DNA from: Candidatus Pampinifervens sinense
GTDB taxonomy: Bacteria; Aquificota; Aquificia; Aquificales; Aquificaceae
NCBI GenBank assembly: GCA_037927135.1
Contig: JAXSPP010000003.1
Span: 167,623-190,615 of the forward strand
DNA length: 22,993 nt
Direction of reading: 5' to 3'
The translations under genes were made by a program, and so were the position numbers. Position 1 is the first letter of the stretch. The number at the start of each line of letters is the position of its first letter. The notes beneath the pieces are model-generated. The model made no database searches and was not told the DNA's origin. It saw nothing but the letters and a program-made list of their open reading frames with translations. This document shows, piece after piece, positions 6,869 to 22,993 of this stretch.

Positions 6869-7105
6869 ATGGACCTAGAGCAAAGGGTAAAAGAGATAAT
6901 AGCCGACCAGCTTGGTGTTGAAGTGGATAAACTAAGCCCTGAGGCAAAGTTTGTAGAGGATCTTGGAGCGGACTCCCTTGATGTGGTGGAGCTTATCATG
7001 GCCTTTGAGGAAGAGTTTGGTATTGAAATACCCGATGAGGACGCAGAAAAGATAAGGACTGTAGGAGACGTTATAGACTACCTCAAGGAGAAGGTGAAGG
7101 CTTGA
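6869..7105 (+). CDS. acpP: Acyl carrier protein
   Basis: [12 protein letters not shown] phosphopantetheine site, acidic 78 aa, strong RBS. Confidence 0.97.
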
Positions 7106-8343
7106 AAAGGCGTGTAGTGGTCACTGGGCTGGGGGTAGTTTCCCCCATAGGAACGGGTGTAGAAAAGTTTTGGTCCAATCTTATAGCAGGTGTAAGCGGT
7201 GTAGATATAATAAGGAGGTTTGATCCTGTAGAGCTTGGGCTTCCGGTTCATATTGCAGCAGAAGTAAAGGACTTTGAACCAGAAAAATACTTTGATAAGA
7301 AGGAGATACAGAAGGTTTCGGACTTTATAAAGTATGCCGTTGCTGCGGCAGAGGAGGCCATAAAAGACAGCGGCCTTTTGGAGAGCAAATTTGATCCATA
7401 CAGGGTTGGTGTGATCATAGGTACTGGTATTGGGGGTTTAAGGGACATTGAGGAACAGCACAAGATACTTATGGAAAAGGGTCCAAGGAGGGTTTCTCCC
7501 TTCTTTATACCCTACGGCATATCCAACATGGCAAGCGGTCTTGTGGCCATACGCTTTGGCTTTAAAGGCCCAAATTATTGTGTGGTCTCCGCCTGCGCCA
7601 CGGGCAATCATGCCATCGGCGATGCCATGAGGCTGATACAAAAGGGAGATATAGATGTGGCCATAGCTGGGGGTTGTGAGAGCGCCATAACACCCCTTGG
7701 AGTGGCAGGCTTTGCCTCCATGAAGGCCCTTTCCACAAGGAACCATGAGCCTCAAAAGGCCTCAAGGCCCTTTGACAGAGACAGGGATGGCTTTGTGATG
7801 GGTGAGGGGGCTGGCATATTGGTTTTGGAAGAATATGAACATGCAAAGGCAAGGGGAGCAAAGATATACGCAGAGCTTGTAGGTTATGGTGCCACGGACG
7901 ATGCCTACCATATTACCGCACCATGCGCCGACGGAGAGGGTGCATACATGTGCATGAAGCTTGCCTTAGAGGATGCGGGTGTGAAACCTGAGGAGATAGA
8001 TTACATAAATGCCCACGGCACTTCCACACCTTTGAACGACAAGTCTGAAACACTGGCCATAAAAAGGCTTTTTGGAGAGCATGCCTACAAGCTAAAAATA
8101 AGCTCCAACAAATCTATGATAGGGCATCTTTTGGGTGCTGCGGGAGCGGTGGAGGCTGTGGCCACAGTAAAGACCATACAAACGGGCATAATACCACCCA
8201 CCATAAACTTGGAAAACCCCGATCCTGAGTGCGACCTTGATTATGTGCCAAACAAGGCTATAGAGTATCCTGTGGTTTATGCCCTTTCCAATTCCTTCGG
8301 CTTTGGCGGAACCAATGCAAGCCTTCTCTTCAAAAAACTTTGA
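7102..8343 (+). CDS. fabF: 3-oxoacyl-ACP synthase II
   Basis: [15 protein letters not shown] catalytic Cys, [28 protein letters not shown]. Follows acpP. Confidence 0.96.
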
Positions 8344-9040
8344 AGACCTTGAGAAGGCCATAGGCTACGTTTTTAAGAACAAAGACCTTTTAATTCAAGC
8401 CTTTACTCACAAGTCTTATGCAGGTGAGCAAAAGCTTAAGAGCTATGAGACTTTGGAGTTTCTCGGAGACTCTCTTATAAACTTCTTTGTTGTAGACATA
8501 CTTCTTTCCGAATTTCCAGAGGCTTCGGAAGGAGAATTGGCTATGATGAAGTCCTATTTTGTAAGCGAAGATTACCTTTATGAGCTTGCGGAAGAGCTCT
8601 CCTTGGGTAAGTATATACTTGTAGGTGGTAAAAACAGAAGGAGTCATATAAGCACCTCTTTGATGGCCGATACCTTTGAGGCTCTATGGGCTGCCATTTA
8701 CATTGATTGTGGAAGGTCTGCCGATACGGCAAAAGGTTTATTTGATAGGTTATTCAAGGATAGAATAGTTGAAGCGGTCAAAAACAAGGATTATATAAGG
8801 GACTATAAAACCCTTCTGCAGGAAGAAACCCAAAGAAGGTGGAAGGAAAGGCCTGTCTATAGGCTCATAAGCGTAGAAGGTCCACATCACAACAGGATAT
8901 TTGAGGTGGAGTGTAGCATAAGGGAGTTTAGGGCAACGGCAAAGGGGAAAAATAAGAAAACGGCTCAACAGCTTGCTGCAAAAAAGGTGCTTGAGCTTAT
9001 CCTGTCTTCTGAAAGTTCATCTCAAACAACTTCCTGTTGA
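8315..9040 (+). CDS. rnc: Ribonuclease III
   Basis: [10 protein letters not shown] signature, [15 protein letters not shown]-terminal dsRBD (DYKTLLQE...EGPHH...[12 protein letters not shown]). Start uncertain (8279 or 8315; both overlap the fabF end). Confidence 0.94.
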
Positions 9041-9503
9041 AGTTCAAGGCTTGTTTCATAACCTCCAAACAAGCCCTAAAAGGTGTAAACATGGCGTAGA
9101 GCTTTGGGCTTTCCTTTTCCACTTGAAGTATATCCTCAAGCAAGTTAGCCAAAGCCTCCGTTTTTGAATTGATAGAATTGGGTATGTCCAGCCTTTCCAC
9201 CTCTCTTAAAAGCTCTTCTGGCAGGTTTGCAAGTAATGTAGCTTCAAAGTTGAAAACTTCATACATATCGTAGAGGTAATCAATGACTTCATTAATGCTC
9301 TTAAAAAGTTCCTTTTCAATCCTGTAAATAGCCTTCCTATAGGCTTCCAATTCTTCATCCCTCAAGGAACATGCCTCTGCCAAAAAGCTCACTTCTTCAA
9401 GGTCTGCTTTTAGCTCTTTCAAGATCATCTCCAAGAGATTAAGGTTATACCTTATTAGCCTATCTTGCATCAGAAGGGCGCTCAGCACCACACTCCTTTC
9501 CAT
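8997..9503 (-). CDS. Hypothetical helical protein
   Basis: Long ORF filling the gap between rnc and the TOPRIM gene. GGAGG precedes ATG 9503 (MERSVV). No recognisable motif. Confidence 0.7.
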   Translation of the reverse strand: MERSVVLSALLMQDRLIRYNLNLLEMILKELKADLEEVSFLAEACSLRDEELEAYRKAIYRIEKELFKSINEVIDYLYDMYEVFNFEATLLANLPEELLREVERLDIPNSINSKTEALANLLEDILQVEKESPKLYAMFTPFRACLEVMKQALNFNRKLFEMNFQKTG

Positions 9504-9819
9504 ACACATCCTCCACAAAGGTTATTCCCAAACCTCTCAACTCTTCTCTAAAATCTTCTATTAAAATATATCCCTGGCTTTCTAAAAGTGTTTTTACCTT
9601 TTCCTTTATCCTCTCGCCGTGCTTGTCAAGGTCAAAAAGTAGTATGACCTCCGAATAACCTTCCAAGAGGTCTGGAAGGTCGGTGAACCTTTTCCCTTCT
9701 AAAGTGAATATGTTCTTAATACCGAACTTAGAAAGGGCCTGTTTGTCCCTTTTACCCTCTACCAAAACAGCCCTACTTTTTGAAGCTTCCCTTAGCCTCT
9801 CTAGCCAATCTGCAAGCAT
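9460..9819 (-). CDS. Small standalone TOPRIM-domain protein (small primase-like/RNase M5-like)
   Basis: VLVEGKRD (conserved Glu) and LLFDLDKHGE (DxD) TOPRIM motifs in 119 aa. Confidence 0.85.
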   Translation of the reverse strand: MLADWLERLREASKSRAVLVEGKRDKQALSKFGIKNIFTLEGKRFTDLPDLLEGYSEVILLFDLDKHGERIKEKVKTLLESQGYILIEDFREELRGLGITFVEDVYGKECGAERPSDAR

Positions 9820-9825
9820 TAAGTA

Positions 9826-9834
9826 TGTTATACT
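9826..9834 (+). promoter_or_regulatory. Extended -10 (TGtTATACT) upstream of gyrA/parC
   Basis: TG-n-TATACT in the 30-bp divergent gap between the TOPRIM gene and gyrA. Confidence 0.5.
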
Positions 9835-9849
9835 ATATTTGCTGGCACC

Positions 9850-12144
9850 ATGGAAATCATAACAGTTCCCATAGAAGAAGAGGTAAAGCAGTCTTACATA
9901 GACTATGCAATGTCCGTTATAGTGGGCAGGGCCATACCCGATGTGAGGGATGGCCTAAAGCCTGTCCAAAGAAGGATACTATATGCGATGCACGAAATGG
10001 GCCTGTATCCGGATAAGCCTTTTGTAAAGAGTGCAAGAATAGTTGGTGCCGTCCTAGGACACTACCACCCTCATGGAGATCAGGCTGTCTATGAAGCTCT
10101 AGTGCGTATGGCCCAGGACTTTAACATGAACTATCCACTCATAATAGGGCAAGGGAATTTTGGTTCTATAGATGGTGATCCTCCAGCGGCCATGAGGTAT
10201 ACGGAGGCAAAGCTGTCTAAGTATGCGGTAGAACTTCTGGAGGATATTGATAAAAATACGGTAGATTTCGTTCCGAACTTTGACGGCTCCACATGGGAGC
10301 CTTCTGTGTTGCCTTCCAAGTTTCCAAACCTTCTATGCAACGGGAGCAGTGGTATAGCTGTGGGGCTTGCTACTTCCATACCACCCCACAACCTAAAGGA
10401 AGTGTGCCAAGCACTTGTGGAGCTGGCAAAAAACCCAGATCTTACCACTCAAGAAATTATGAAATACATAAAAGGCCCAGATTTTCCGACGGGGGGTATT
10501 GTGGAGAATTATTCGGAGCTTGTAGAGTTTTATGAAAAGGGGAGGGGTCAGGTCAGGATAAGGGCAAAGGCCCATATAGAAAAGCTATCTGGTGGAAGAG
10601 AACAGATAGTGATAACTGAGCTACCTTATCAAGTCAATAAGGCGGAGCTCATAAAGCGCATTGCAGAACTTGCTAGGGAAGGTAAGCTAAAAGAGATTTC
10701 GGAGATAAGGGATGAGTCGGATAGGGAAGGGATAAGGATAGTGATAGAGTTAAAGAGGGATGCGGAAGGTGAGAAGACATTGGATAAGCTCTACAAGCTT
10801 ACAGCTTTAAAAAAGAACTTTCCTTTAAACTTTGTGGTTTTAATAAACGGCGAGCCAAGGCTGGTTGGCATAAAGACCCTACTCCAGGAGTTTATAAAAC
10901 ATAGGCTGGAGGTCATACTACGAAGGGCCAAGTTCTTCCTTTCAAAGGCAAAAGAAAGGTTGCATATAGTGGAAGGTCTTCTAATCGCGCTGAATAACTT
11001 GGACAAGGTTATAGAGGACATAAGGAGCTCTTCCGACGTTCAAGAGGCCAGAGAAAGGCTTATGCAGAAGTATAAGCTTACCCAAGTTCAGGCAAACGCT
11101 GTGTTGGATATGAGGCTACAAAGGCTAACATCCTTGGAAAGGAGTAAGCTGGAGGAGGAGGAAAGGGATCTAAAGAAGAAGATAGAGTATTATACAAGGC
11201 TGGTAGAGGATGAGGGAGAGAGGATAAAGGTCTTTATAGAGGAGACTAACGAACTTGTCCAAAAGTTTAACACACCAAGGAAAACGCTGATAGAAGAACT
11301 TCAAACGGAAGAGGAGGGATCACTTACTGTGGTTATCTACACAAAAGGTAAGGTTCTGCCTTTGGAAAGTTTGGAGGAAGGTGAAGAGGTAGTAGATGTT
11401 CTTACTGTGCCCTTCACAAGCGGTCTTTTTATGGTATCCGATATGGGAAGGGTTTATTGGATAGCAGGATCCCAAGCCCTAAGAGGAAGCTTTCTATCTT
11501 TTAAGGATGCTGAAGAAAAAATAGTTGGTGCCTTCGTGAGGTCTTCTGTGGATGGGAGGATACTCTTAGCAACGCAGATGGGTTATGTGAAAAAGATACC
11601 CCTTGTGGATTTTGAATACAGGTCTCAGGGCATGCAGATAATAAAGTTTTCGGAAGAGGAGGATAGGGTAGCTAAGGTGGTGCAAGCGCCAGAGGAGGGT
11701 GACGTGCTCTTGTTTACCTATAGGGGTAGGTTGCTCAGGTTCCCAGCAAAGGAGATTCCTCCCTCCACGCCCAACTCTAGAGGTGTCCAAGGCATTAAGC
11801 TTGAAAAGGGTGATATGGTGGTGGGGATAAGGGCTTTAAAGGATGCGGAGTACCTTTTGGTGATAACGGAGGACGGTGGGGTAAAGAAGGTTTCCCTTCA
11901 AGAGGTGCCTCAAAGGGGAAGGGCCACAAAGGGTGTGGAGGTTCTTGGGTCTTCAAGGGAAAGGCTTGTAGATGTGGTTCCCATAAGAGGCTCTGTAGAG
12001 CTCATGATAGCCACAAAGGAAGGTAGGGTCTTTTATGATAGGTTGGAGGAGAGAAGCTTGCCTTTGAGCAGGCTTGACCAGAGGGCAAAGAGAAGGTGGG
12101 ATCTTGGAGAGGATAAGATTGCAAGGGTGGTGGTAAAGGAGTAA
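9850..12144 (+). CDS. gyrA: Type IIA topoisomerase subunit A (GyrA/ParC)
   Basis: [29 protein letters not shown] catalytic Tyr, C-terminal beta-pinwheel repeats. The GyrA-box is not seen at the canonical position, so activity may be topo IV-like. Confidence 0.9.
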
Positions 12145-12147
12145 GAA

Positions 12148-12156
12148 TGGTATAAT
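12148..12156 (+). promoter_or_regulatory. Extended -10 (TGgTATAAT) 6 nt before leuD ATG, probable leaderless promoter
   Basis: TGGTATAAT-tttccc-ATG, with no Shine-Dalgarno between the -10 and the start. Confidence 0.65.
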
Positions 12157-12162
12157 TTTCCC

Positions 12163-12666
12163 ATGGTTATAAGAGGTAGAGTTTGGAAGTTTGGAGACAA
12201 CGTAGACACAGACCAGATAATACCTGCAAGATATTTGAACACTTCAGACCCCTATGAGCTTGCCCAGCATGTGATGGAAGATTCAGAACATCCCAACTTT
12301 GCCAAGGAACACAAGGAAGGCGACATTATAGTGGCAGGCAGGAACTTTGGCTCCGGCTCTTCCAGAGAGCATGCTCCTATTGCCATAAAGTACGCTGGTG
12401 TGCCTGTAGTCATTGCTAAGTCCTTCGCAAGGATATTCTTTAGAAATGCCATAAACATAGGGCTTCCTATAGTGGAGGCTCCACAGGCGGTAGATGAAAT
12501 AGATCACGGTGATGAGGTGGAAGTGGATCTGGAAAAGGGTATAGTGAGAAACCTCACTAAAGGAAAAGAATACCAAGCCACAAGGTTTCCAGAGACCCTT
12601 ATGGCTATATTAAAGGCCGGTGGCCTTATGGAGTATGCCAAAGAGAAGCTAAGGGCTAATGGATAA
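12163..12666 (+). CDS. leuD: 3-isopropylmalate dehydratase small subunit (short LeuD/HacB type)
   Basis: [43 protein letters not shown]. Confidence 0.9.
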
Positions 12667-13201
12667 GGAAAGGCTTAAGGCTCTTATAAAGGAAAGGTCG
12701 CTAAAGGTGGCAGAAGAGCCCATCTTTAAACTCTCTTCCGGAAGGTTAAGCAGGTATTACATAGACCTAAAGCAGATCACCTTTGACCCAGAAAGCCTTT
12801 ATATGCTTGGTAGAATAATGTATGAAAGCATAAAAGACTTAAGGCCCGATGGAGTAGGTGGCCTTACCCTTGGTGCAGACCCTATAGCCTACTCTGTGGC
12901 CATGATATCCTACATGGAAGGAGATCCAATAAAGCCCTTTGTGGTAAGAAAGGAGCCAAAGGCCCATGGCACAGGAAGGCAGATAGAAGGATTGTTGAAG
13001 GCTGGGGACAGGGTGGTGGTCTTTGAAGATGTTATAACCACTGGAGCCTCCGCCCTAAAGGCTGTTCAAGCCTGTCAAAAAGAAGGCTATGAGGTTCTAT
13101 GCGTTTATGCAGTGGTAGACAGGGAAGAGGGCGGAAGGGAGAACTTGGAAAGGGAAGGGCTAAAGGTTTTCTCCCTTTTTAAGGTCTCAGACCTACTATG
13201 A
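12659..13201 (+). CDS. pyrE: Orotate phosphoribosyltransferase
   Basis: FKLSSGRLSRYYID, VRKEPKAHG, VVVFEDVITTGAS PRPP loop, VVDREEGG. Confidence 0.94.
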   Translation: MDKERLKALIKERSLKVAEEPIFKLSSGRLSRYYIDLKQITFDPESLYMLGRIMYESIKDLRPDGVGGLTLGADPIAYSVAMISYMEGDPIKPFVVRKEPKAHGTGRQIEGLLKAGDRVVVFEDVITTGASALKAVQACQKEGYEVLCVYAVVDREEGGRENLEREGLKVFSLFKVSDLL

Positions 13202-13923
13202 ACATAATTTTTCTTTCCTCTTTGCTCCTTTTGGGAACCTTTCTTGGAAGCCTTATTGCCGTACTTTTTAAAAGGTCCTTTATAAGCGTGGGGCCAGCCC
13301 TCTCTTTTACCGGTGGTGTTATGCTTGTGGCCAGTTTTACAAGCCTTATACTGCCTGGCATAAAGATAGGTGGCTTTTGGTCTGTGGCTTTGGGCATTGT
13401 GCTGGGCTTTGCCCTTATGGCCCTCATAGAAAACCTTGTGCCTCATGAACATACCGTAAAGGGTAAGGAAGGCCTTTCTCATAAAAGGATAAATAAAATC
13501 TACCTTATAGTCTTTGCGGTGATAATACACAACATACCGGAGGGTCTTAGCGTTGGCATAGCCTCTTCCTACTCTATGAATAAAGGGCTTGAAACCGCCA
13601 TAGCCATAGCACTTCAAGACGTACCAGAAGGCCTCATAGTAAGCCTTCCACTTATGGTCATAAGCGAGAAGGTGCTTATACCCTTATGGATAGGCTTTTT
13701 AAGTGGTCTTATTGAGGCCATCTTTTCACTTTTTGGCTATACCTTTTTTGAACACTTTAACAGCCTTTTGCCCATAGGCCTTGGCTTTGGTGGTGGTGCC
13801 ATGATATACATAACGGCCAAGGAGGTTTTCCCAGAGGCCTACTCGGAAGAAAAACATACCCAATCCACAATAGCTTTTCTTGTAGGATTACTGCTTATGC
13901 TTCTTCTGGATACCTCACTTTAG
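13198..13923 (+). CDS. ZIP/ZupT-family divalent metal transporter
   Basis: GGVMLVASF, PHEH, IIHNIPEGLSVG, IALQDVPEGL, GGAMIYI; multiple TM segments. Confidence 0.92.
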   Translation: MNIIFLSSLLLLGTFLGSLIAVLFKRSFISVGPALSFTGGVMLVASFTSLILPGIKIGGFWSVALGIVLGFALMALIENLVPHEHTVKGKEGLSHKRINKIYLIVFAVIIHNIPEGLSVGIASSYSMNKGLETAIAIALQDVPEGLIVSLPLMVISEKVLIPLWIGFLSGLIEAIFSLFGYTFFEHFNSLLPIGLGFGGGAMIYITAKEVFPEAYSEEKHTQSTIAFLVGLLLMLLLDTSL

Positions 13924-14733
13924 GGCGTTCTGCACCAATGTGGGTATGAGGTGCACATTGTGGCATCTATAACAGTATTGCTCTATCTCCGACATTTGTC
14001 TAAAGACAGCTTCTCTGTTTACCTGCTGAGCCTTTAAGGCCCTTTGTAAGTTGTCAAGGGAAGTAAGATAGTCCTTGCCAGCAAGGGCTTCTATGGATGC
14101 TTTAGAGGTGTGGCATTTAGTACACATGGTATTTAGCTGTTTTGCCCTCTCTACAAAGTTGTCTCCATGCTCTTTTGCCTTTGCCACATCGCCTTGCATA
14201 AGGAATACCCTAAGGGACTTCATAGAATCGGAAAGCTTCTTCATATAGTCTTTTACCTTCAGCTCCTGCAATTCTACTGGATCTTCAATCCTTATATTGT
14301 CATACCTTGGAAAGTGATAGTATAGCTTTACCACCGCTTGGTTTTCTTGATGGCATTTATTACAGGTTTGGCCAAGGTCCCTCATAGCCTTTATGACCGC
14401 ATCCACATTCCTTGATTGGACAGCCTTTACCAAGTTGTCTGCCAAGACAGGCTTATAGTATTCCCTCCACTCTGGCACCATCCTTGCACTCTCTTCATAG
14501 GCCTTCTTTAGCTGGCTTGCCCAATCAAGGGCCTTGTCCCACCTTCCTTCGTTTATGTTTAGGCTTATCCCATGGAGGGCTGTGCTCATAGTGTGCATAT
14601 TGGATAGAAACTCCATCCTCTGAGATCTGGGAGGGTAATACTTTTCAAGGGACTTGGGTGGCCTCTTCATCACTATCTGCTGTGAAAAGGAAAAGCCCAA
14701 AAGCAGGCTTATCAAAACCAAAGACCTTTTCAT
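13915..14733 (-). CDS. Exported triheme c-type cytochrome
   Basis: N-terminal signal peptide (MKRSLVLISLLLGFSFSQQ) and three CxxCH motifs (CNKCH, CTKCH, CYRCH). Confidence 0.82.
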   Translation of the reverse strand: MKRSLVLISLLLGFSFSQQIVMKRPPKSLEKYYPPRSQRMEFLSNMHTMSTALHGISLNINEGRWDKALDWASQLKKAYEESARMVPEWREYYKPVLADNLVKAVQSRNVDAVIKAMRDLGQTCNKCHQENQAVVKLYYHFPRYDNIRIEDPVELQELKVKDYMKKLSDSMKSLRVFLMQGDVAKAKEHGDNFVERAKQLNTMCTKCHTSKASIEALAGKDYLTSLDNLQRALKAQQVNREAVFRQMSEIEQYCYRCHNVHLIPTLVQNALK

Positions 14734-17607: not shown

Positions 17608-17680
17608 TCGGGGTGACGGGACTTGAACCCGTGACCTCTGGCCCCCCATGCCAGCGCGCTGCCGCCTGCGCCACACCCCG
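17608..17680 (-). tRNA. tRNA-Pro(GGG), CCA not encoded
   Basis: Minus strand: CGGGGTG acceptor stem, GCGC D-stem, CTGGC-AT GGG GG-GCCAG anticodon arm, ACGGG-TTCAAGT-CCCGT T-arm, CACCCCG-A. Confidence 0.95.
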
Positions 17681-17686
17681 TTAAAT

Positions 17687-17929
17687 TTAAATTTTAGAAC
17701 GTTTTAAGCCATATTTCAACTTAAAAAGAAGCTTTTTGCTTGGTCTGAAGACGATCCTTTTTTCCCCTCTTCTAAAGCTTCCAAAGCCAGATATTTTGAC
17801 CTTTTCACCAGAAAGTAAAGCTTGGCTCAACTTTTTTATGATAAAATTTACCATGCTGTAGACTTTCCTTTTTGGAAAATTGGGAAAGTGATCCCTATGT
17901 AGCCTTTCCGCTATAGCCTTTCTTTTCAT
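17687..17929 (-). CDS. HU/IHF-family DNA-binding protein with shortened arm
   Basis: LSQALLSGEKVKISGFGSF and IVFRPSKKL HU/IHF motifs. Translationally coupled to rpsA (4-bp overlap). Confidence 0.8.
   Translation of the reverse strand: MKRKAIAERLHRDHFPNFPKRKVYSMVNFIIKKLSQALLSGEKVKISGFGSFRRGEKRIVFRPSKKLLFKLKYGLKRSKI
17691..17719 (-). promoter_or_regulatory. Sigma70-type promoter for tRNA-Pro, inside the HU-like gene 3' end
   Basis: Minus strand TTGAAA (17719-17714), 17 nt, TAAAAT (17696-17691), ending 10 nt before the tRNA 5' end. Confidence 0.55.
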
Positions 17930-19500
17930 AACTTAAGCTTCTTCTTTAGAATATCTCCCAAGGTAAAGCCTTTGTCTCCCCCAGACCCTATAGTAATAAT
18001 ATCCTTTTCCTCCTTCCTTTCCTCCTCCTTCATACTAAAGGTTATCCTATCTTGAGAAAGTTCTATTATCTTTACCTCAACCTCTTGACCTTCCGAAAGC
18101 TTTACACCCCTTGGCACCTCCGATATGGGTAAAAGGCCATCCACACCCTCTGGAAGCTGTAGGAAGGCTCCAAAGGGATGCACACTCTTTACCTTTAGCT
18201 TTACTTTGTCTCCCACCTTGTAATTCTTAAGAACCTTTTCCCAAGGATTTTCCTTTAGCTGTTTTAGGCCTAGCTTTACATACCTTCCTTCCAGCCCAAG
18301 CACGGCAAACTCAAGGGATTGGCCAACTTGAAGCACCTCTTCTACCCTTCCAGGCCTTACCCAATCAAGGTCGCTCCTGTGTATTATGCCCTGCACATTC
18401 TCCTCAAGCCTTATGATGGCCTTCGCTCCCTCTATACTTTCAACAGTGCCAACCACCTTGCTTCCCACAGGATACTTCTTGATAAACTCTTCCCAAGGCT
18501 TGGGAAGTGTCCTCTTTATACTGAGTATAAGCTTGCGCTTCTTTGGATCAAACTCCAACACCTGCGCAGAAACCCTATCCCCCTTCTTGAAAGTAGCACC
18601 ATCATAGGAAACCTCTTCCTTAGGCACAAAGCCCTCCACACCCTCCATAACCTCTACAACAAGACCGTTTTCCCTTACTTCAACCACCCTACCGTTTACC
18701 ACCTGCCCTTTGCTTATGCTTTCCTGGGCCTTCACCCATGGATTTTCCTTCATTTCCCTTAGGCTAACGAAGATGAACTGACCGTCCTTAGGTATCCTCT
18801 TTACCTTAACCCTCAACCTCTCACCTATCTCCGTATAGTTATAGGGATTCTTGTCCCTTCCCCAACTTAACTCCTCCAGTGGTAGGAAGGCTCTTAGCAC
18901 TTTGCCTACCAGAAGGGTTACTCCCTTGTTAGGATCTATCTTTATAACGCGGCCTTCAACCACATCCCCTACCTTTAGCCTTGCAAGAAGTCTAGCCTTC
19001 TTCCTCTCTTCCATAAACTTCATATACTCCTTCTGAGAAAGGACTATCTTTAAACCATCCTGCTCCCTCTTAAACTCTATTATCTTTGCCACCACCTTTT
19101 TACCTTCCGCTAAGTTCTTGCTTGCCTCCTCAAAAGGCATCTCCGCTTTTAGACCGCTGATATCCACCACATAGGACCTTTCATTCCTTGCCACTACTGT
19201 ACCTGTGATAAACTTACCCTTTTCATAAGCATTTTGCAAAAATCTTATAAGCCTTCCTTCCAAATACCTTCTATAGGAAAGTATGGGATAGCCTTCCCTA
19301 CTAAACCTTAAAACTACTGCCTTTACCTCATCACCCACCTTTGCTTCAGGAAGTTCCTCTTTAGGTATGACTCCCTCCACCTTATAACCAATATCCACAT
19401 ACAAGTTCCTCTCATCCACCTGTACCACTTTTCCTTTTACCACTTCCCCTCTTCTTATCTCCTTCAGACCACTCTCAAAAACCTTCTCAAATTCGCTCAT
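17926..19500 (-). CDS. rpsA: 30S ribosomal protein S1
   Basis: Six S1/OB repeats (GEVVKGKV, VDIGYKVEGVIP, ENPW, FGAFL...DGLLPISE) and C-terminal FTLGDIL. Start 19500 (GGAGG RBS) or 19512. Confidence 0.92.
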   Translation of the reverse strand: MSEFEKVFESGLKEIRRGEVVKGKVVQVDERNLYVDIGYKVEGVIPKEELPEAKVGDEVKAVVLRFSREGYPILSYRRYLEGRLIRFLQNAYEKGKFITGTVVARNERSYVVDISGLKAEMPFEEASKNLAEGKKVVAKIIEFKREQDGLKIVLSQKEYMKFMEERKKARLLARLKVGDVVEGRVIKIDPNKGVTLLVGKVLRAFLPLEELSWGRDKNPYNYTEIGERLRVKVKRIPKDGQFIFVSLREMKENPWVKAQESISKGQVVNGRVVEVRENGLVVEVMEGVEGFVPKEEVSYDGATFKKGDRVSAQVLEFDPKKRKLILSIKRTLPKPWEEFIKKYPVGSKVVGTVESIEGAKAIIRLEENVQGIIHRSDLDWVRPGRVEEVLQVGQSLEFAVLGLEGRYVKLGLKQLKENPWEKVLKNYKVGDKVKLKVKSVHPFGAFLQLPEGVDGLLPISEVPRGVKLSEGQEVEVKIIELSQDRITFSMKEEERKEEKDIITIGSGGDKGFTLGDILKKKLKL

Positions 19501-19522
19501 CCGTTCCTCCATGGAATTTTTT

Positions 19523-19532: not shown

Positions 19533-20978
19533 TTATCCTTTTAAAGTGCCCAGGGGTTTAAACCTTGCCACAAGCTTTGCTATACCCAAGGAATGCACTA
19601 CAAAGGCTACCTCAGAAACATCCTTATAGGCCTGTGGTATCTCTTCAGCCACCGTTCCCTTTCCCCTTGCCACCACCACAAGGTCTCCAAGCACCTTCTC
19701 AAGACCTTCCCTCCTTACAAACTCCTTTGCCTTTGTCCTTGACATAAGCCTGCCAGCTCCATGGCATGCACTTCCAAAGCTCATATGCATACTCTTTTCC
19801 TGTCCTACCAGAAGGAAGGAATACCTTCCCACATCTCCGGGTATGAGAACGGGCTGGCCTATGTCTCTGTAAGCTGGTGGAATGTCTGGGTTATGGGGTG
19901 GGAAGGCCCTTGTGGCACCCTTTCTATGAACCAAAAGCTTTTTAACTCTCCCATCCACCTTATGCTCTTCCACCTTTCCTATGTTGTGGGCAAGGTCGTA
20001 GATGAGCCTGTATCCAAACTCCTGCCAGGAGAGTTTAAAGAACCTTCTTACCGTATCTGCCGTAAGGTATCCAAGTATCTGCCTGTTGGCAAAGGCGTAG
20101 TTGGCCGCAGCGTTCATGGCCTTAAAGTAGCTTTGACCTTCAGGCGACTTGAAGGGCATACATGCCAACTGCATATCTGGAATGTCTATATCGTATTTCC
20201 TTAAGGCATCCTTTGCTACCTTGAGGTAATCTACACATACTTGATGGCCAAAGCCCCTTGAACCAGAGTGCACCATTATGGTAACCTGTCCAAGCTCAAG
20301 GCCTAGCTTTTTGGCCACATCCTCATCGTATATCTCATCCACATACTGCACCTCTACAAAGTGGTTTCCTGATCCCACCGTTCCAAGCTCGTCAGATCCC
20401 CTCTCAAAGGCATAATCGGAAACTTTAGAAGGATCTGCATTGGGAAGGGCTCCACCGCTTTCTATATGCTCCAGGTCCTCCTTAAAACCATAACCCCTCT
20501 CTATAGCCCATCTTGCACCCTTTATGGCCACCTCAGAAAGCTCAGACTTTGAAAGCCTTATCTTTCCAGTAGACCCTACACCGGCGGGAACATTCTTTAA
20601 TATCTCCTGCATAAGCTCCTTTCTTACAGGCTTTACATCATCCACAGTAAGGTTTGTAGCTATAAGCCTTACACCACAGTTTATATCGTAGCCTATGGAC
20701 CCAGGGCTAATAATACCATCCTCTATATCGGTCGCCATTATACCACCTACTGGAAAGCCATAACCCACATGCACATCTGGCATTACATAAATGGCCTTTT
20801 CCACTCCAGGAAGGGTAGCTGCATTGGCCGCCTGCCTTATGGCATCCTCCTCTAAAAGCTCAAAGAGTTTATCGCTAAGGTAAAAGTAGACTGGCACCTT
20901 TTGACCTTGGATAGTCTTCTCCGGCAGCTTATAGATATATTCATCAATCTTAATGAGGCTCTCCTTTAGACTCATCAT
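19533..20978 (-). CDS. rtcB: RtcB-family RNA ligase
   Basis: MPDVHVGYGFPVG, GYDINCG, GSGNHF, HSGSRGFG, AHN, HRKGAT, SACHGAGR (His-GMP), EEIPQAYK, C-terminal KG. No intein. Confidence 0.95.
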   Translation of the reverse strand: MMSLKESLIKIDEYIYKLPEKTIQGQKVPVYFYLSDKLFELLEEDAIRQAANAATLPGVEKAIYVMPDVHVGYGFPVGGIMATDIEDGIISPGSIGYDINCGVRLIATNLTVDDVKPVRKELMQEILKNVPAGVGSTGKIRLSKSELSEVAIKGARWAIERGYGFKEDLEHIESGGALPNADPSKVSDYAFERGSDELGTVGSGNHFVEVQYVDEIYDEDVAKKLGLELGQVTIMVHSGSRGFGHQVCVDYLKVAKDALRKYDIDIPDMQLACMPFKSPEGQSYFKAMNAAANYAFANRQILGYLTADTVRRFFKLSWQEFGYRLIYDLAHNIGKVEEHKVDGRVKKLLVHRKGATRAFPPHNPDIPPAYRDIGQPVLIPGDVGRYSFLLVGQEKSMHMSFGSACHGAGRLMSRTKAKEFVRREGLEKVLGDLVVVARGKGTVAEEIPQAYKDVSEVAFVVHSLGIAKLVARFKPLGTLKG

Positions 20979-21000
20979 AGTATTAAATGTATTTCAAAAA

Positions 21001-21050
21001 TGGTGGGCGATGGAGGACTCGAACCTCCGACCTCCATCTTGTGAGGATGG
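21001..21050 (-). repeat. 3' 50-bp fragment of tRNA-Val(CAC), attachment site of the integrated element
   Basis: Minus strand CCATC-CT CAC AA-GATGG AGGTC GGAGG-TTCGAGT-CCTCC ATCGCCC A CCA. The 5' acceptor strand (expected GGGCGAT) and D-arm are absent upstream. The integrase ends 49 bp away. Confidence 0.9.
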
Positions 21051-21099
21051 GTGAAAGCCTAATTCTATCAAGGTTTTCGTGGCGGGTGTTAACTACAGG

Positions 21100-22188
21100 T
21101 TAACTTTTGGGCAAAGATTTATCCATAACCTCTGACAGGGTGTCAAGGGCAGACCTAAGATGCTCTGGGCTAAGGTGGGCGTATCTCTTTACCATGCTGG
21201 CGGACTTATGCCTTGTTAGGTGTTGTATGGTGTAGAGGTCTACTCCTTTCATGGCAAGCCAGCTGGCAAAGGTATGTCTAAGGTCATGAAACCTAAGGTC
21301 TGGTATGCCTGCTTTCCTGCATGCGGTTTTAAATGCTTTTAGATAGGTCTTGTCCTCTACCTTGTAGGGCTTGCCTTTTGAGTTGGTAAAGATGTAGCCT
21401 ATGCGAGGAGTATTGCCTTTAAGCCTTTTAAGGAGCTCAATGGCTTGCTTTCCCAGTGGAAGCCTTGCTATTTCATTATTCTTGGCATTGGTTATGGCTA
21501 TAGTGCCATGCTCTAAGTCCACATCTTCCCACTTTAGGCTAAATATCTCACTGGCTCTAAGACCTGTATAGACTGCAAACTCTACTGCGGGTCTTAGCCA
21601 TGAGGGGCATGCTTGTAGTAGGCGGGCAAACTCCTCTGGCTTTAAAAACCTAAGCCTACTGTCATCTACCTTGAAAAGTTTAACCTCTGGCAGGTCTCCA
21701 GAGTATAGCTTTAGGGTTTTAGCTTTCTTGAGGATGGCTCTGAGAATGTTAAGCTCTGAGTTTATTGTGTTGGGCTTTACTCCAGCGGATAGCCTATGCT
21801 GTTTATACTGCTCTATGGTGAAGGTGCTTATCTTGGATAACTCCATAGTGCCAAAATAGTCAACGAGCTTGTGGACTTTCCTTTCTATCTCATAGCTTGT
21901 CCTTGCCTTTGCATGTGGGCGGGTAGAGTGATACCACTTTAGATATTCCTGTGCCAGTTCTTTAAAGGTCAGCTCCTTCTCTTCTACTGGCAGGTAAGTG
22001 CCTTGAATTATCTCTTGCTTTATCTTTATGGCTATGTTCCTTGCCATTGTCAAGGGTATTTCATCAACCCTGCCAATTCTCTCATAGTAAGTCTTGCCTT
22101 TGTAGGTAAACTTTAGCCAGTAAGACCCATGAATTTCATAAAGGTTGTCTCCGTAAGACACTTTGCCTTTCTTTCTTGCCTTAGCCAT
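21100..22188 (-). CDS. int: Tyrosine recombinase/integrase
   Basis: N-terminal arm-binding-like domain (YWLKFTYKGK...RIGRVDEIPLTMAR), core-binding domain, catalytic YTGLRASEI, K, FHDLRH, RH, RYAHL. ATG 22188 with GAGG RBS (track starts at 22200). Confidence 0.93.
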   Translation of the reverse strand: MAKARKKGKVSYGDNLYEIHGSYWLKFTYKGKTYYERIGRVDEIPLTMARNIAIKIKQEIIQGTYLPVEEKELTFKELAQEYLKWYHSTRPHAKARTSYEIERKVHKLVDYFGTMELSKISTFTIEQYKQHRLSAGVKPNTINSELNILRAILKKAKTLKLYSGDLPEVKLFKVDDSRLRFLKPEEFARLLQACPSWLRPAVEFAVYTGLRASEIFSLKWEDVDLEHGTIAITNAKNNEIARLPLGKQAIELLKRLKGNTPRIGYIFTNSKGKPYKVEDKTYLKAFKTACRKAGIPDLRFHDLRHTFASWLAMKGVDLYTIQHLTRHKSASMVKRYAHLSPEHLRSALDTLSEVMDKSLPKS

Positions 22189-22196
22189 GACAGACC

Positions 22197-22304
22197 TCAA
22201 CCCTTAGGTTCATCATGCCAGACAGTCCATATCATGTAGGCTATCATCCCAGTAAAAAGCAAAGACATAAGACCTGCCAGTAGGTAAATAAGCCTTTCAT
22301 CCAT
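22197..22304 (-). CDS. 35-aa single-TM peptide MDERLIYLLAGLMSLLFTGMIAYMIWTVWHDEPKG (not in ORF track)
   Basis: AAGGAGGT RBS 6 nt before ATG 22304. Overlaps the stop of the upstream ORF, and its TGA overlaps the int RBS. Hydrophobic core of about 22 aa. Confidence 0.75.
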   Translation of the reverse strand: MDERLIYLLAGLMSLLFTGMIAYMIWTVWHDEPKG

Positions 22305-22536
22305 CTTTTAACCTCCTTATAAGCCTTCTTGCTCTAATATGCAATGAAAGGGCATAAACAAGCAAGGCAAACCATAGAGGTATGCCAGCGGTGATAAAAG
22401 CCTTTGCTTGTGGGCTTTCTGGCTTAAGCATCAACCCTACAAGACCACCAGTAAGCAAAAGTAAAGCATTCCACACATGGCTAAACATGTGCTTGTAGTA
22501 AGCTATTAACTCCTTTAGCTCCTCATTGCCTTTCAT
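22297..22536 (-). CDS. 79-aa two-TM membrane protein of unknown function
   Basis: AGGAG RBS, two hydrophobic segments (VWNALLLLTGGLVGLML; AFITAGIPLWFALLVYAL) and a basic C-terminus. Confidence 0.75.
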   Translation of the reverse strand: MKGNEELKELIAYYKHMFSHVWNALLLLTGGLVGLMLKPESPQAKAFITAGIPLWFALLVYALSLHIRARRLIRRLKDG

Positions 22537-22550
22537 TCTTAAACTCCTAT

Positions 22551-22618
22551 AGCCATATGGCAGTTAACCAACCCTTATGACCTAATGTCTTGTGGTTAGT
22601 TGACTGCAACACATGGCT
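22551..22618 (-). other. 68-nt imperfect hairpin spanning most of the repressor-to-membrane-gene spacer
   Basis: Minus strand AGCCAUGUG/CAUAUGGCU (9 bp), UU bulge, then GCAGUCAACUAACC/GGUUGGUUAACUGC (13 of 14 paired). Confidence 0.7.
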
Positions 22619-22839
22619 TAAGTCTTACCCTTCTCATGGTATGCGTTATCTTGTCCTTTCTCTTCCTCTTTCTGACGGGCGGTCTCAAGGATTTCTGTGA
22701 TTAAAAGAGACAAGGACTTGCCTTCTTTTTGAGCTTTAGCCTTAACCCAGTCCATTAGCTCCTTAGGCAGTCGTATCTGGGTTTTCTCTGGCAGTGAACG
22801 AGGACTAAGGGCTTTAAAGCCTTTTCTTGCCTGAGCCAT
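22618..22839 (-). CDS. Ribbon-helix-helix (Arc/CopG/HicB-like) DNA-binding protein, putative repressor
   Basis: KTQIRLPKELMDWVKAKAQKEGKSLSLLITEIL RHH pattern. Start reassigned to ATG 22839 from promoter geometry (track 22857). Confidence 0.8.
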   Translation of the reverse strand: MAQARKGFKALSPRSLPEKTQIRLPKELMDWVKAKAQKEGKSLSLLITEILETARQKEEEKGQDNAYHEKGKT

Positions 22840-22846
22840 ACAAAAA

Positions 22847-22875
22847 AGTATATCCATACGCTACATCTTAGTCAA
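22847..22875 (-). promoter_or_regulatory. Leftward sigma70 promoter TTGACT-17-TATACT
   Basis: Minus strand -35 at 22875-22870, -10 at 22852-22847, 7 nt before ATG 22839. Confidence 0.8.
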
Positions 22876-22887
22876 GAGGCAAAAAAC

Positions 22888-22916
22888 TTGACATCTTAAA
22901 TAAGATGGCTTATATT
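22888..22916 (+). promoter_or_regulatory. Rightward sigma70 promoter TTGACA-17-TATATT with operator palindrome CATCTTA-aa-TAAGATG (22892-22907)
   Basis: Consensus -35, 17-nt spacer, 5/6 -10. A perfect 7-bp inverted repeat covers the -35 end and spacer. Confidence 0.82.
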
Positions 22917-22950
22917 AGATGCCATCAATACCTTGACAGGAGGGTTAACC

Positions 22951-22993
22951 ATGCAAGAACTCAGAACCTTAGAAAGCTGGCTCTTAGACCTAA
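22951..22993 (+). CDS. N-terminus of a divergently transcribed element gene (MQELRTLESWLLDL...), truncated by the window end
   Basis: AGGAGG RBS at 22938-22943, open frame to the window end, downstream of the rightward promoter. Confidence 0.6.
   Translation, partial: MQELRTLESWLLDL

Follow-up and report, generated by a model that had tools for sequence, protein, structure and literature searches.

An integrase and immunity module in tRNA-Val(CAC) of Candidatus Pampinifervens sinense, very likely one end of a small integrative element of Aquificaceae

Introduction

In the genetic switch of phages P2 and 186, the repressor and integrase genes share one leftward operon, which lies opposite an early operon that starts with Cox or Apl. 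Ribbon-helix-helix (RHH) proteins of the Arc/MetJ/CopG kind read DNA with an N-terminal beta-strand, and an RHH protein as the main repressor of an element is uncommon but known. To our knowledge, few mobile elements have been described in Aquificota, and there are no routine genetic tools for the group. In this work, we analysed a stretch of 22,993 nucleotides (hereafter the window) of Candidatus Pampinifervens sinense, a hot-spring organism of the Aquificaceae. Its last part, 21001-22993, very likely belongs to a small integrative element, capable of replicating itself, that entered tRNA-Val(CAC) upstream of rtcB, and represents the integrase and immunity end of that element.

The minimal phage satellites also resemble this locus. 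In the account given by de Sousa et al. (PMC10085698), a Type C phage-inducible chromosomal island (PICI) consists of an integrase, an AlpA-type regulator and a primase/replicase. The phage-inducible chromosomal minimalist islands (PICMI) of Vibrionaceae are described elsewhere as having three core proteins for excision and replication. Among the top-ranked matches and abstracts of the literature on mobile elements, we found no description of such elements in Aquificae or Aquificota, so that the family appears to be new to that literature while its general kind is familiar.

Genomes of the family and its relatives carry G-labels (G000 is the source genome of the window), fetched loci L-labels and metagenome runs X-labels. 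The window is G000:C3:167623-190615, where C3 is the contig.

Results

Integration site and empty sites

The tRNA end and the leftward genes of the element are as follows, in window coordinates:
21001..21050, minus strand: 3' 50 nt of tRNA-Val(CAC), the copy of the attachment (att) core on the rtcB side, from alignment with the intact tRNA-Val genes of G015 and G024
21100..22188, minus strand: tyrosine integrase (Int), 362 aa from ATG 22188, within an open reading frame (ORF) listed as 21100-22200 from TTG 22200; from Pfam and identity to the G024 protein
22197..22304, minus strand: gene of a 35-aa peptide with a single transmembrane (TM) helix; an ORF whose end carries the GAGG ribosome site of int
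22297..22536, minus strand: gene of a 79-aa two-TM protein with a basic C-terminus, in the accessory slot; an ORF
22541..22625, minus strand: hairpin h1 with its main stem-loop at 22551-22618 (68 nt); from fold statistics and a covariance model
22618..22839, minus strand: RHH (Arc/CopG-like) repressor, 73 aa, within an ORF listed as 22618-22857; from a PHROG match, the G024 ortholog and a fold search

On its minus strand, 21001-21050 aligns base for base with the 3' 50 nt of the relatives' intact tRNA-Val(CAC), from the 5' strand of the anticodon stem through CCA. The sequence 5' of that strand is unrelated to tRNA-Val, the 5' half having been replaced. ARAGORN called tRNA-Pro(GGG) as the only tRNA of the window and left 21001-21050 uncalled, and the Rfam tRNA model scored 21.3 bits there, below its gathering score of 29. 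Since the alignment is partial, ARAGORN makes no call and the Rfam score is below threshold, 21001-21050 is a tRNA fragment. A preliminary description made from the sequence alone had proposed this 50-bp 3' fragment, together with a leftward unit of RHH gene, 68-nt hairpin, 79-aa two-TM gene, 35-aa one-TM gene and intact integrase gene; the alignment bears out the fragment, and all parts of the unit lie where it had put them.

To search for empty sites, a 501-nt query composed of the rtcB 5' end, the fragment and its flank was compared with 40 relatives. In seven of them, which are relatives within the genus (G015, G006, G005, G020, G007, G019 and G008), rtcB is contiguous with an intact, ARAGORN-called tRNA-Val(CAC), as the preliminary description had anticipated for a site without the element, and the match is unbroken from rtcB through the tRNA part. 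The 3' flank of the G000 fragment resembles that of the empty site in G015, a genome in which no integrase homolog was found at E 1e-20. Among the 44 tRNAs on the 12 contigs of G000 there is no intact tRNA-Val(CAC), valine being represented by Val-GAC and Val-TAC only.

The final base of the window (22993) is also the final base of C3, and the element is cut by this contig end. The right end of C3 overlaps no other G000 contig, and the remainder of the element rightward of 22993 is absent from the 12-contig assembly.

Complete relatives and their gene content

The closed genome G024 holds a 7.5-kb element (L020 ~6897-14357) between a tRNA fragment and an intact tRNA-Val(CAC), and its fragment with the 50-nt flank is 96% identical to that of G000. 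The left part of this element carries int, two small TM ORFs and the RHH gene. Its early side runs rightward through genes of 145, 85 and 135 aa without any family, then a 66-aa HTH_17 protein (E 1e-11, also a weak Phage_Cox match) and a 680-aa protein with a CHC2 primase zinc ribbon and an AAA_25/DnaB-like (DnaB_C) part (PHROG primase/helicase, 2.4e-23); two paralogous ~170-aa genes stand at the end. The closed genome G016 has an 8.1-kb relative of the same layout, with Xis-like HTH and primase-helicase genes; it is bounded by an intact tRNA-Met(CAT) on one side and, on the other, by 44 bp that repeat the 3' part of this tRNA. In the partial elements L044 and L123, the replication gene is replaced by that of a 909-aa DUF3854 (Toprim-like) and P-loop protein. 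From these relatives, the G000 element is probably about 7-8 kb in size.

A direct repeat of the tRNA 3' part is thus present at both ends of the element in G024 and in G016 (44 bp), and the G000 assembly, whose contig ends inside the element, shows one copy. In G010, the junction of rtcB, fragment and int lies on one contig and the tRNA with the opposite arm on another. The second core copy expected by the preliminary description is therefore seen 7.5 kb away in G024 and not in G000. As for the replication, packaging or conjugation genes that it had envisaged, the relatives supplied replication genes. Pfam and PHROGs revealed no capsid, portal, large terminase, tail or lysis gene in the complete elements of G024 and G016 or in the partial elements L044, L123 and L121, and no Pfam family of relaxases, coupling proteins or type IV secretion systems occurred in any element protein scanned.

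A 137-aa cargo protein of G016 (L206 8765-9178) passes PF13022 HTH_Tnp_1_2 (30.5 bits against a cut-off of 27.9) and has a weak match to a small-terminase PHROG (E 0.0099), which is a lead for packaging redirection.

Distribution

An integrase relative at E <=1e-20 is present in 8 of the 25 genomes of the genus, G000 included. Metagenomes gave nine hot-spring loci at 62-97% integrase identity, the other 71 kept loci reaching at most 41%. Genomes gave four loci at 55-96%, all in metagenome-assembled genomes of Aquificota/Aquificaceae (one named Candidatus Pampinifervens yunnanense), and the remaining ones were at most 37%. All close relatives come from hot-spring material. In IMG/VR the search returned six loci with integrase identities of 29-32% at best, and no close relative. 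The G024 element matches P-arm and integrase-like DNA at 72-87% identity in G071:C34, G072:C16 and G084:C37; with matches in at least two other genera, the element family is not confined to one genus.

The match to CRISPR spacers suggested by the preliminary description did not appear in limited checks: a crude scan found no CRISPR array in the G000 assembly, which is a weak test since arrays often stay unassembled, and eight short stretches of other genomes (29-43 bp) that match the G024 element all lie outside array-like repeats.

Depth and contig graph in metagenomes

Twenty hot-spring metagenome runs from eight studies hold part of the 2-kb stretch. In run X1, a 3430-nt rtcB contig (depth 221) ends inside the core, and the 47-nt core (21004-21050) forms its own unitig at a depth of 797, about the sum of 221 and 571. 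The int contig has a depth of 604; the RHH contig (564) extends 250 nt beyond 22993. A 4861-nt contig at a depth of 571 leaves the core as an alternative to the rtcB flank, and a loose end at 21086 resembles the P-arm sequence of G024. This graph is the one expected if the element runs about 5 kb further to a second core.

As k-mer means of unitigs, which the tool warns against reading as copy number, these depths place the element about 2.6 times deeper than the host rtcB flank (564-604 against 221). Since the core depth equals host plus element, the extra element copies are unmatched by extra host sites, and the excess fits excised, replicating circles. Runs X2, X4 and X7 gave short contigs only, and their depths were not used.

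The repressor and its operators

The right part of the element contains two promoters back to back and the start of the early genes:
22847..22875, minus strand: leftward (maintenance) promoter TTGACT-17-TATACT, 10/12 of the consensus; promoter scan
22888..22916, plus strand: rightward (early) promoter TTGACA-17-TATATT, 11/12 of the consensus; promoter scan
within 22863..22926, no strand assigned: operator-like repeats, with ACATCTTA at 22863 and 22891; repeat search
22892-22907, no strand assigned: palindrome CATCTTA-aa-TAAGATG in the spacer of the rightward promoter; repeat search
22904-22926, no strand assigned: imperfect inverted repeat; repeat search
22951..22993, plus strand: first early gene, its first 14 codons, cut by the contig end; homology to G024, L044, L123 and L121

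The rightward promoter is the divergent, near-consensus promoter noticed in the preliminary description. Besides the leftward promoter, no promoter-like site of at least 10/12 occurs on the minus strand between the RHH gene and int, so the genes from RHH to int probably form a single leftward unit. The homologs of the first early gene in G024, L044, L123 and L121 are 134-145 aa long and belong to no Pfam or PHROG family; the Atlas gave one weak lead to DUF6788.

The RHH gene had been drawn from 22857. Because the -10 box overlies the upstream ATG, the start is most likely the ATG at 22839, giving 73 aa. In G000 the -10 box TATACT ends 7 nt before this ATG with no Shine-Dalgarno sequence. A distance of 6-7 nt without a ribosome site is kept in all five immunity types, from which the RHH mRNA is probably leaderless.

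The G000 protein matches the PHROG of Arc-like repressors (E 5e-5), and its G024 ortholog (~60% identical) passes RHH_5 (27.3 against 26) and RHH_1 (20.6 against 20.5). The best PDB profile match is weak (E 0.032). In the AlphaFold model (pLDDT 70), helices span residues 26-39 and 43-70, and the strand is unformed in the monomer. Using Foldseek, about 28 of the 33 rows shown were RHH proteins, but at E 0.1-1.4; the top matches were Arc, CopG, MazE, the RHH domain of MatP and AvtR, with rmsd values of 0.5-2.1 A over 31-49 columns. The window repressor is thus predicted to have the strand-helix-helix fold.

When eight RHH genes were aligned, the second half (helix A, GK(S/T) turn, helix B) was invariant and the stretch before an invariant P was variable. 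This variable strand and the repeat in the rightward-promoter spacer define five immunity types:
G000, L069: RHH strand KTQIRLP; spacer repeat CATCTTA-aa-TAAGATG
L042, L123: RHH strand KFTSSVP; spacer repeat ATCATT-c-AATGAT
G024, L055, L045, L044: RHH strand RIELRVP; spacer repeat GACAGGA-n6-GACAGGA
L047: RHH strand RIGAHIP; spacer repeat CAAAAA-attc-TTTTTG
L121: RHH strand KLTTKLP; spacer repeat GACATTTT-caa-AAAATGTC

Across these types the architecture of the leftward promoter is the same, and the rightward promoter keeps TTGACA and TATA(A/T)T at a spacing of 16-17 nt. G000 has an extra half-site in the spacer of its leftward promoter. The pairing of five strand types with five spacer repeats, a comparative result, is the main evidence that the RHH protein would be the immunity repressor of the element.

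The integrase and its arm sites

The integrase, which likely starts at ATG 22188, is intact as the preliminary description had read it: it covers positions 2-171 of 172 of Phage_integrase (PF00589) at E 7.5e-41, has Int_N and SAM-like domains, and shows the catalytic R..HxxR..Y residues in motifs read by eye in the translation (LRASE, HDLRH, RYAH). With the integrase of the complete element in G024 it shares 98% identity. Its N-terminus matches Arm-DNA-bind_3 (E 0.0049) and Arm-DNA-bind_2 (E 0.019), both under the cut-offs. Beside the gene lies its putative binding region:
21051..21106, minus strand: P' arm of att, with two AGTTAAC heptamers at 21088-21094 and 21099-21105, the second overlapping the int stop

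The stretch AGTTAACCTGT(A/G)GTTAA(C/T) after the int stop is kept in G024, L044, L046, L045 and G016, whatever the target tRNA, and a 27-bp stretch with two heptamers is repeated in both att arms of G024 and of G016. The 18-kb G024 locus contains AGTTAAC 12 times against 3.2 expected, a count reached by none of 200 shuffles. Eleven of these copies are inside the element, where two directly follow the int stop, four lie in the arm at the other end and five are elsewhere. Inverted repeats hold two of these five sites, one in h1 and one an overlapping pair in h2.

Identity to the G000 integrase was compared by residue blocks (1-80, 81-170 and 171-362) in elements with other targets:
G016, L044 (target tRNA with anticodon CAT): 92-96%, 50% and 60%
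L045 (target tRNA read by eye as Gly-CCC): 94%, 41% and 60%

Since residues 1-80 and the arm repeats are kept and the rest diverges with the target, the arm-binding part would be constant, and the core-binding and catalytic parts would change with the target tRNA. This joint conservation lends indirect support to residues 1-80 as a candidate arm-binding domain that acts on the AGTTAAC repeats. In the L121-type element, residues 1-80 are only 74% identical, AGTTAAC is absent and the inverted repeats are different.

The loci with swapped targets are L044 8889-9010, L046 1270-1390, L045 2189-2330 and L206 15883-16030, and the tRNA-Met is intact in G016.

Hairpin h1 and a family of inverted repeats

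As RNA, the 96-nt stretch 22530-22625 has a minimum free energy of -34.8 kcal/mol (z -5.3), and none of 200 shuffles was as stable. The RHH stop codon is at the base of h1, and the outer stem pairs with G, A and G, three of the four bases of the GGAG ribosome site of the two-TM gene. A covariance model of h1 gave 14 strong sense-strand matches in 29 sources, a set that includes duplicates from one and the same genome, and matched every close family locus. By genome, there is one strong match each in G000, G024 and G016, two further weak ones in G000 (E >=0.1) and none in G015, which has no element. Covariation was rejected as proof of an RNA structure since the divergence is too small. Rfam 15, searched on 20900-22993 at E up to 1, returned the tRNA fragment only and no family for h1. 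A terminator scan called three sites, all on the plus strand within int.

At the DNA level, h1 is a member of a family of inverted repeats, GTTAACTAACC..GGTTAGTTAAC, with 11-bp perfect arms around unrelated loops of 18-22 nt. These occur two to four times per element at module boundaries, and in 5 of 90 family genomes, all of this genus and all bearing the element; a reversed control gave 0. The copy of G000 itself has one arm mismatch and is outside this count. The 8-mer TAGTTAAC is common to these arms and the att arm repeats. Sequence conservation ends exactly at the 3' edge of h1, where the cassette switches from the TM genes to a DUF4258/DUF2283 pair. The inverted repeats of L121 were also compared with the arm repeats of L121 itself, and no resemblance was found.

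Membrane peptides and the accessory slot

Both membrane-peptide genes are conserved in related loci. Homologs of the 35-aa peptide with a conserved C-terminus W(H/K)DEPKG are present in G024, L042, L043, L045, L055 and L069; the peptide has no Pfam match above cut-off, no PHROG and no PADLOC family. The 79-aa protein was assigned to no named family by Pfam, PHROGs, PADLOC, word search, profile search or the Atlas. Its word search gave 3 clusters, and a profile of four variants gave 141 representative clusters, nearly all of 70-90 aa. No membrane or phage family above cut-off was found among these representatives (42 scanned with Pfam, 37 with PHROGs), and the sole match above cut-off, a ketol-acid reductoisomerase domain in one 200-aa protein, lies apart from the matched stretch.

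The 79-aa gene is replaced or absent in L044, L047 and L123, and runs X4 and X7 contain variants in which 10-18 other bases take its place (joints from 22315 to 22526, 22541 and 22548). Other variants carry other small TM genes or toxin-antitoxin-like pairs in this slot. PADLOC on 20 element proteins gave two weak partial matches only. The membrane peptides would be accessory genes expressed with the repressor, and their likeliest roles, by analogy with genes at the same position in prophages, are exclusion of incoming DNA or membrane-acting addiction.

Some variants have the DUF4258/DUF2283 pair in the slot before int, and L123 has in addition a DUF6290/RHH antitoxin-like gene near its far end; the stretches concerned are L044 7112-7608, L123 9351-9847 and 203-430, and L047 987-1214.

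Neighbouring host DNA and assembly

To the left of the insertion (window 17608-17680, 17926-19512) lie ordinary host genes, namely tRNA-Pro(GGG), a 528-aa protein with a repeated S1-like sequence read by eye, and rtcB (Pfam E 1.5e-167). In G024 (L020 2040-6920), G003, G018, G023 and G011, rtcB and tRNA-Val(CAC) are separated by about 5 kb that include [NiFe]-hydrogenase-like genes. This segment, absent from G000 and from the seven empty-site genomes, is a second variable segment at the same tRNA. The genes past the tRNA in G015, G024 and G003 have no clear syntenic partner at any G000 contig end.

Seventeen of the 24 contig ends of G000 terminate in one of two ~127-nt repeats. Both are also found inside C1 (C1:79462-79978), about 280 nt apart and at 93-95% identity, and probably mark the two termini of an insertion sequence or repeat whose multiple copies broke up the assembly. 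The contig C12 (L017) is an 8.2-kb nuo (NADH dehydrogenase) operon; at its ends it shares 85% and 92% identity with the right ends of C10 and C11, which indicates two paralogous nuo operons in G000. C12 and the right ends of C10 and C11 were considered as missing element DNA and rejected, since they are nuo operons.

Discussion

Proposed working of the element

In the integrated state, the leftward promoter would give a leaderless mRNA for the RHH repressor, whose dimers may bind the palindrome in the rightward-promoter spacer and switch off the early operon, which in relatives comprises three genes without a family, an HTH_17 Xis/AlpA-like gene and a primase-helicase. The further half-site in the leftward promoter would let the repressor regulate itself. 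The leftward transcript would run through h1 into the variable accessory slot, here with two membrane peptides, and on into int. On the way, h1 could limit read-through, or limit translation by sequestering the ribosome site of the two-TM gene. As the ribosome site of int is inside the end of the 35-aa gene, int may be translationally coupled and the integrase kept low. When repression is lost, Xis and Int would excise the element at the 47-50-bp core, the N-terminal domain of Int binding the AGTTAAC repeats of both att arms, and the primase-helicase would replicate the circle. Since no transfer genes were found, spread from cell to cell would need a helper, as for a phage satellite, or another route.

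Several results weigh against this reading or parts of it. A tblastn search with the G024 element proteins against the G000 contigs returned the window genes only and no homolog of an early or replication gene; the size, replication gene and second core copy of the G000 element are accordingly taken from relatives and from the contig graph of one run. In that run, X1, neither an excision junction (attP) nor an empty attB was seen directly because contigs at k=31 cannot span the 47-nt core, and the warning on its k-mer depths bears on the excess. All six Pfam RHH-family matches of the G000 repressor are below the curated cut-offs (best E 0.0012-0.005). TAAGATG is not enriched in the whole window (5 copies against 3.6 expected, with 29 of 100 shuffles reaching 5) and is notable for its clustering alone, three copies in 44 bp; nor is AGTTAAC (3 against 3.1 expected), all three copies of which are in the element part. 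At h1, no intrinsic terminator was called, the stem being followed by AUAGGAGUUUAAG without a U-tract, and its copies show no compensatory pair among 6 sequences and one among 10, the other changes being one-sided wobbles.

Nature of the element and role of h1

The integration proposed in the preliminary description is supported. For the nature of the element, it had offered a virus, a satellite or an integrative plasmid. A full virus is unsupported because the complete relatives measure 7.5 and 8.1 kb and have no structural genes, and the evidence points to an integrative plasmid or a phage-satellite-like element. As a minimalist satellite (PICMI, Type C PICI or P4-like), it would be excised and replicated upon infection by a helper and packaged in helper particles. 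The combination of integrase, AlpA-like HTH and primase/replicase equals the Type C PICI set as given by de Sousa et al. (PMC10085698) and the three core proteins of PICMI. The size of 7.5-8.1 kb, the absence of transfer genes from the scanned proteins, the G016 cargo gene that passes PF13022 with its weak small-terminase match, and the greater depth of the element in X1 agree with it. Against it, there is no known helper, the scans revealed neither capsid-remodelling nor sid/psu/delta nor clear terS genes, close relatives are missing from IMG/VR and the limited checks gave no spacer match. We rate the satellite as a serious candidate that falls somewhat short of an even chance. The element might instead be an autonomous integrative plasmid that alternates between the chromosome and a low-copy circle through its own primase-helicase and spreads without a virus, by transformation, vesicles or contact. 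This is suggested by its own replication gene in two exchangeable versions (CHC2 primase-helicase or the 909-aa DUF3854/P-loop protein) and by a depth ratio of ~2.6, rough as the figures are, with a core depth of host plus element and extra copies not tied to host sites; the toxin-antitoxin-like DUF4258/DUF2283 and RHH/DUF6290 genes of some variants would suit maintenance. Yet no partition gene, relaxase or oriT-type protein was found, and it is phage-derived elements that more typically have a lysogeny-like switch whose early operon encodes an excisionase, which leaves the autonomous plasmid plausible at roughly a one-in-three level of belief. A decayed remnant, of which the int-RHH end alone survives in G000 and whose coincidence with the contig end is accidental, would agree with the lack of a second core, an intact tRNA-Val(CAC) and early or replication homologs in the 12 contigs. 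This we consider very improbable, given four undamaged genes, an integrase that shares 98% identity with one from a complete element, a first early gene that is open into the contig end and, in X1, a 4861-nt contig at element depth that enters the core and a loose end at 21086 that matches the P arm of G024.

A similar choice arises for h1. Rather than as RNA, it may work as a DNA site, namely an inverted repeat specific to the element to which one of the element's own proteins binds (the arm-binding domain of Int being the first candidate), and would then be a roadblock or operator before int or a junction for module exchange. The recurrence of the GTTAACTAACC/GGTTAGTTAAC arms at module boundaries of element-bearing genomes with unrelated loops, the shared TAGTTAAC, the abrupt stop of conservation at the 3' edge where cassettes differ, and the L121 type, in which a different Int N-domain goes with other inverted repeats and no AGTTAAC, speak for such a site. 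The arm differences, on the other hand, are G-U wobbles on the mRNA strand only, a pattern that fits RNA but would not fit a DNA cruciform; h1 also has additional outer stems and an overlap with a ribosome site; all copies are at the 3' ends of transcription units, as terminators are; and the L121 inverted repeats are unlike the arm repeats of L121. We hold the DNA site to be a good possibility, if the lesser half of the belief. Overall, h1 may be either an RNA attenuator with ribosome-site occlusion or a DNA site for an element protein. A bolder and improbable proposal treats these Aquificaceae elements as plug-and-play minimalist satellites or integrative plasmids that swap three specificities in the form of cassettes: RHH strand with operator (five types), replication protein, and integrase core-binding/catalytic part with target tRNA (Val-CAC, Met-CAT, Gly-CCC). 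The arm-binding domain and arm sites would be the constants, and the inverted repeats, which carry the arm-type motif of the integrase at module junctions, would be where the exchange takes place, by a recombination that depends on Int and acts on the folded repeats, with a distant likeness to integron attC sites; the copy in front of int might also be an Int-responsive brake.

Significance

The small integrative element described here offers an att site, an integrase, a candidate excisionase, a replication gene and a compact repressor/operator pair with strong consensus promoters, and is an obvious basis on which to build integration or shuttle vectors for these thermophiles. Its family is also a natural experiment, in which RHH strand variants are paired with operator variants and targeting modules are swapped on a constant arm-binding domain. 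Should its members be satellites, they would indicate that hot springs harbour helper viruses yet to be discovered.

Comparison with known systems

We place the element in a new family, although one whose general kind is well known. The family stands out by its modular features, and the roles given above for two of its parts, the inverted-repeat family and the membrane peptides, are tentative. Like the minimal satellites (PICMI, Type C PICI, P4-like) as their published summaries present them, it is small and, going by its relatives, combines an integrase, an AlpA/HTH_17 regulator or excisionase and a primase/replicase without capsid genes; the window itself contributes the integrase only. It differs in integrating in tRNA genes instead of the PICMI-type end of fis, in its RHH master repressor, and in having neither psu/delta/sid nor a known helper; it is a candidate satellite. 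Its host family, Aquificaceae, also sets it apart from the SatelliteFinder classes, the string 'Aquific' occurring 0 times in the main text of the SatelliteFinder paper. The tycheposons of Prochlorococcus, compared by their general description only, are likewise tRNA-targeting integrative elements with a replication module and variable cargo, but differ in host phylum and regulatory module.

In its control region, the element resembles P2/186 in the order att, int and repressor, in the opposite early operon with an excisionase-like HTH gene and replication genes, and in an int without a strong promoter of its own. Unlike P2/186, it uses an RHH instead of an HTH repressor, its promoters are back to back and not face to face, and its repressor is separated from int by an accessory slot and a hairpin. 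The preliminary description had called this control module unusual, which holds insofar as an RHH main repressor is uncommon; such repressors are known, and the layout is close to that of P2/186. With Arc/Mnt of P22, CopG of plasmids and regulators of archaeal viruses such as AvtR, the repressor has in common its fold matches, the variable N-terminal strand before a conserved P, the GK(S/T) turn and the palindromic or repeated operators. It differs from them in its weak sequence matches, and in that it appears here, from a probably leaderless mRNA, as the main immunity repressor of an integrated element.

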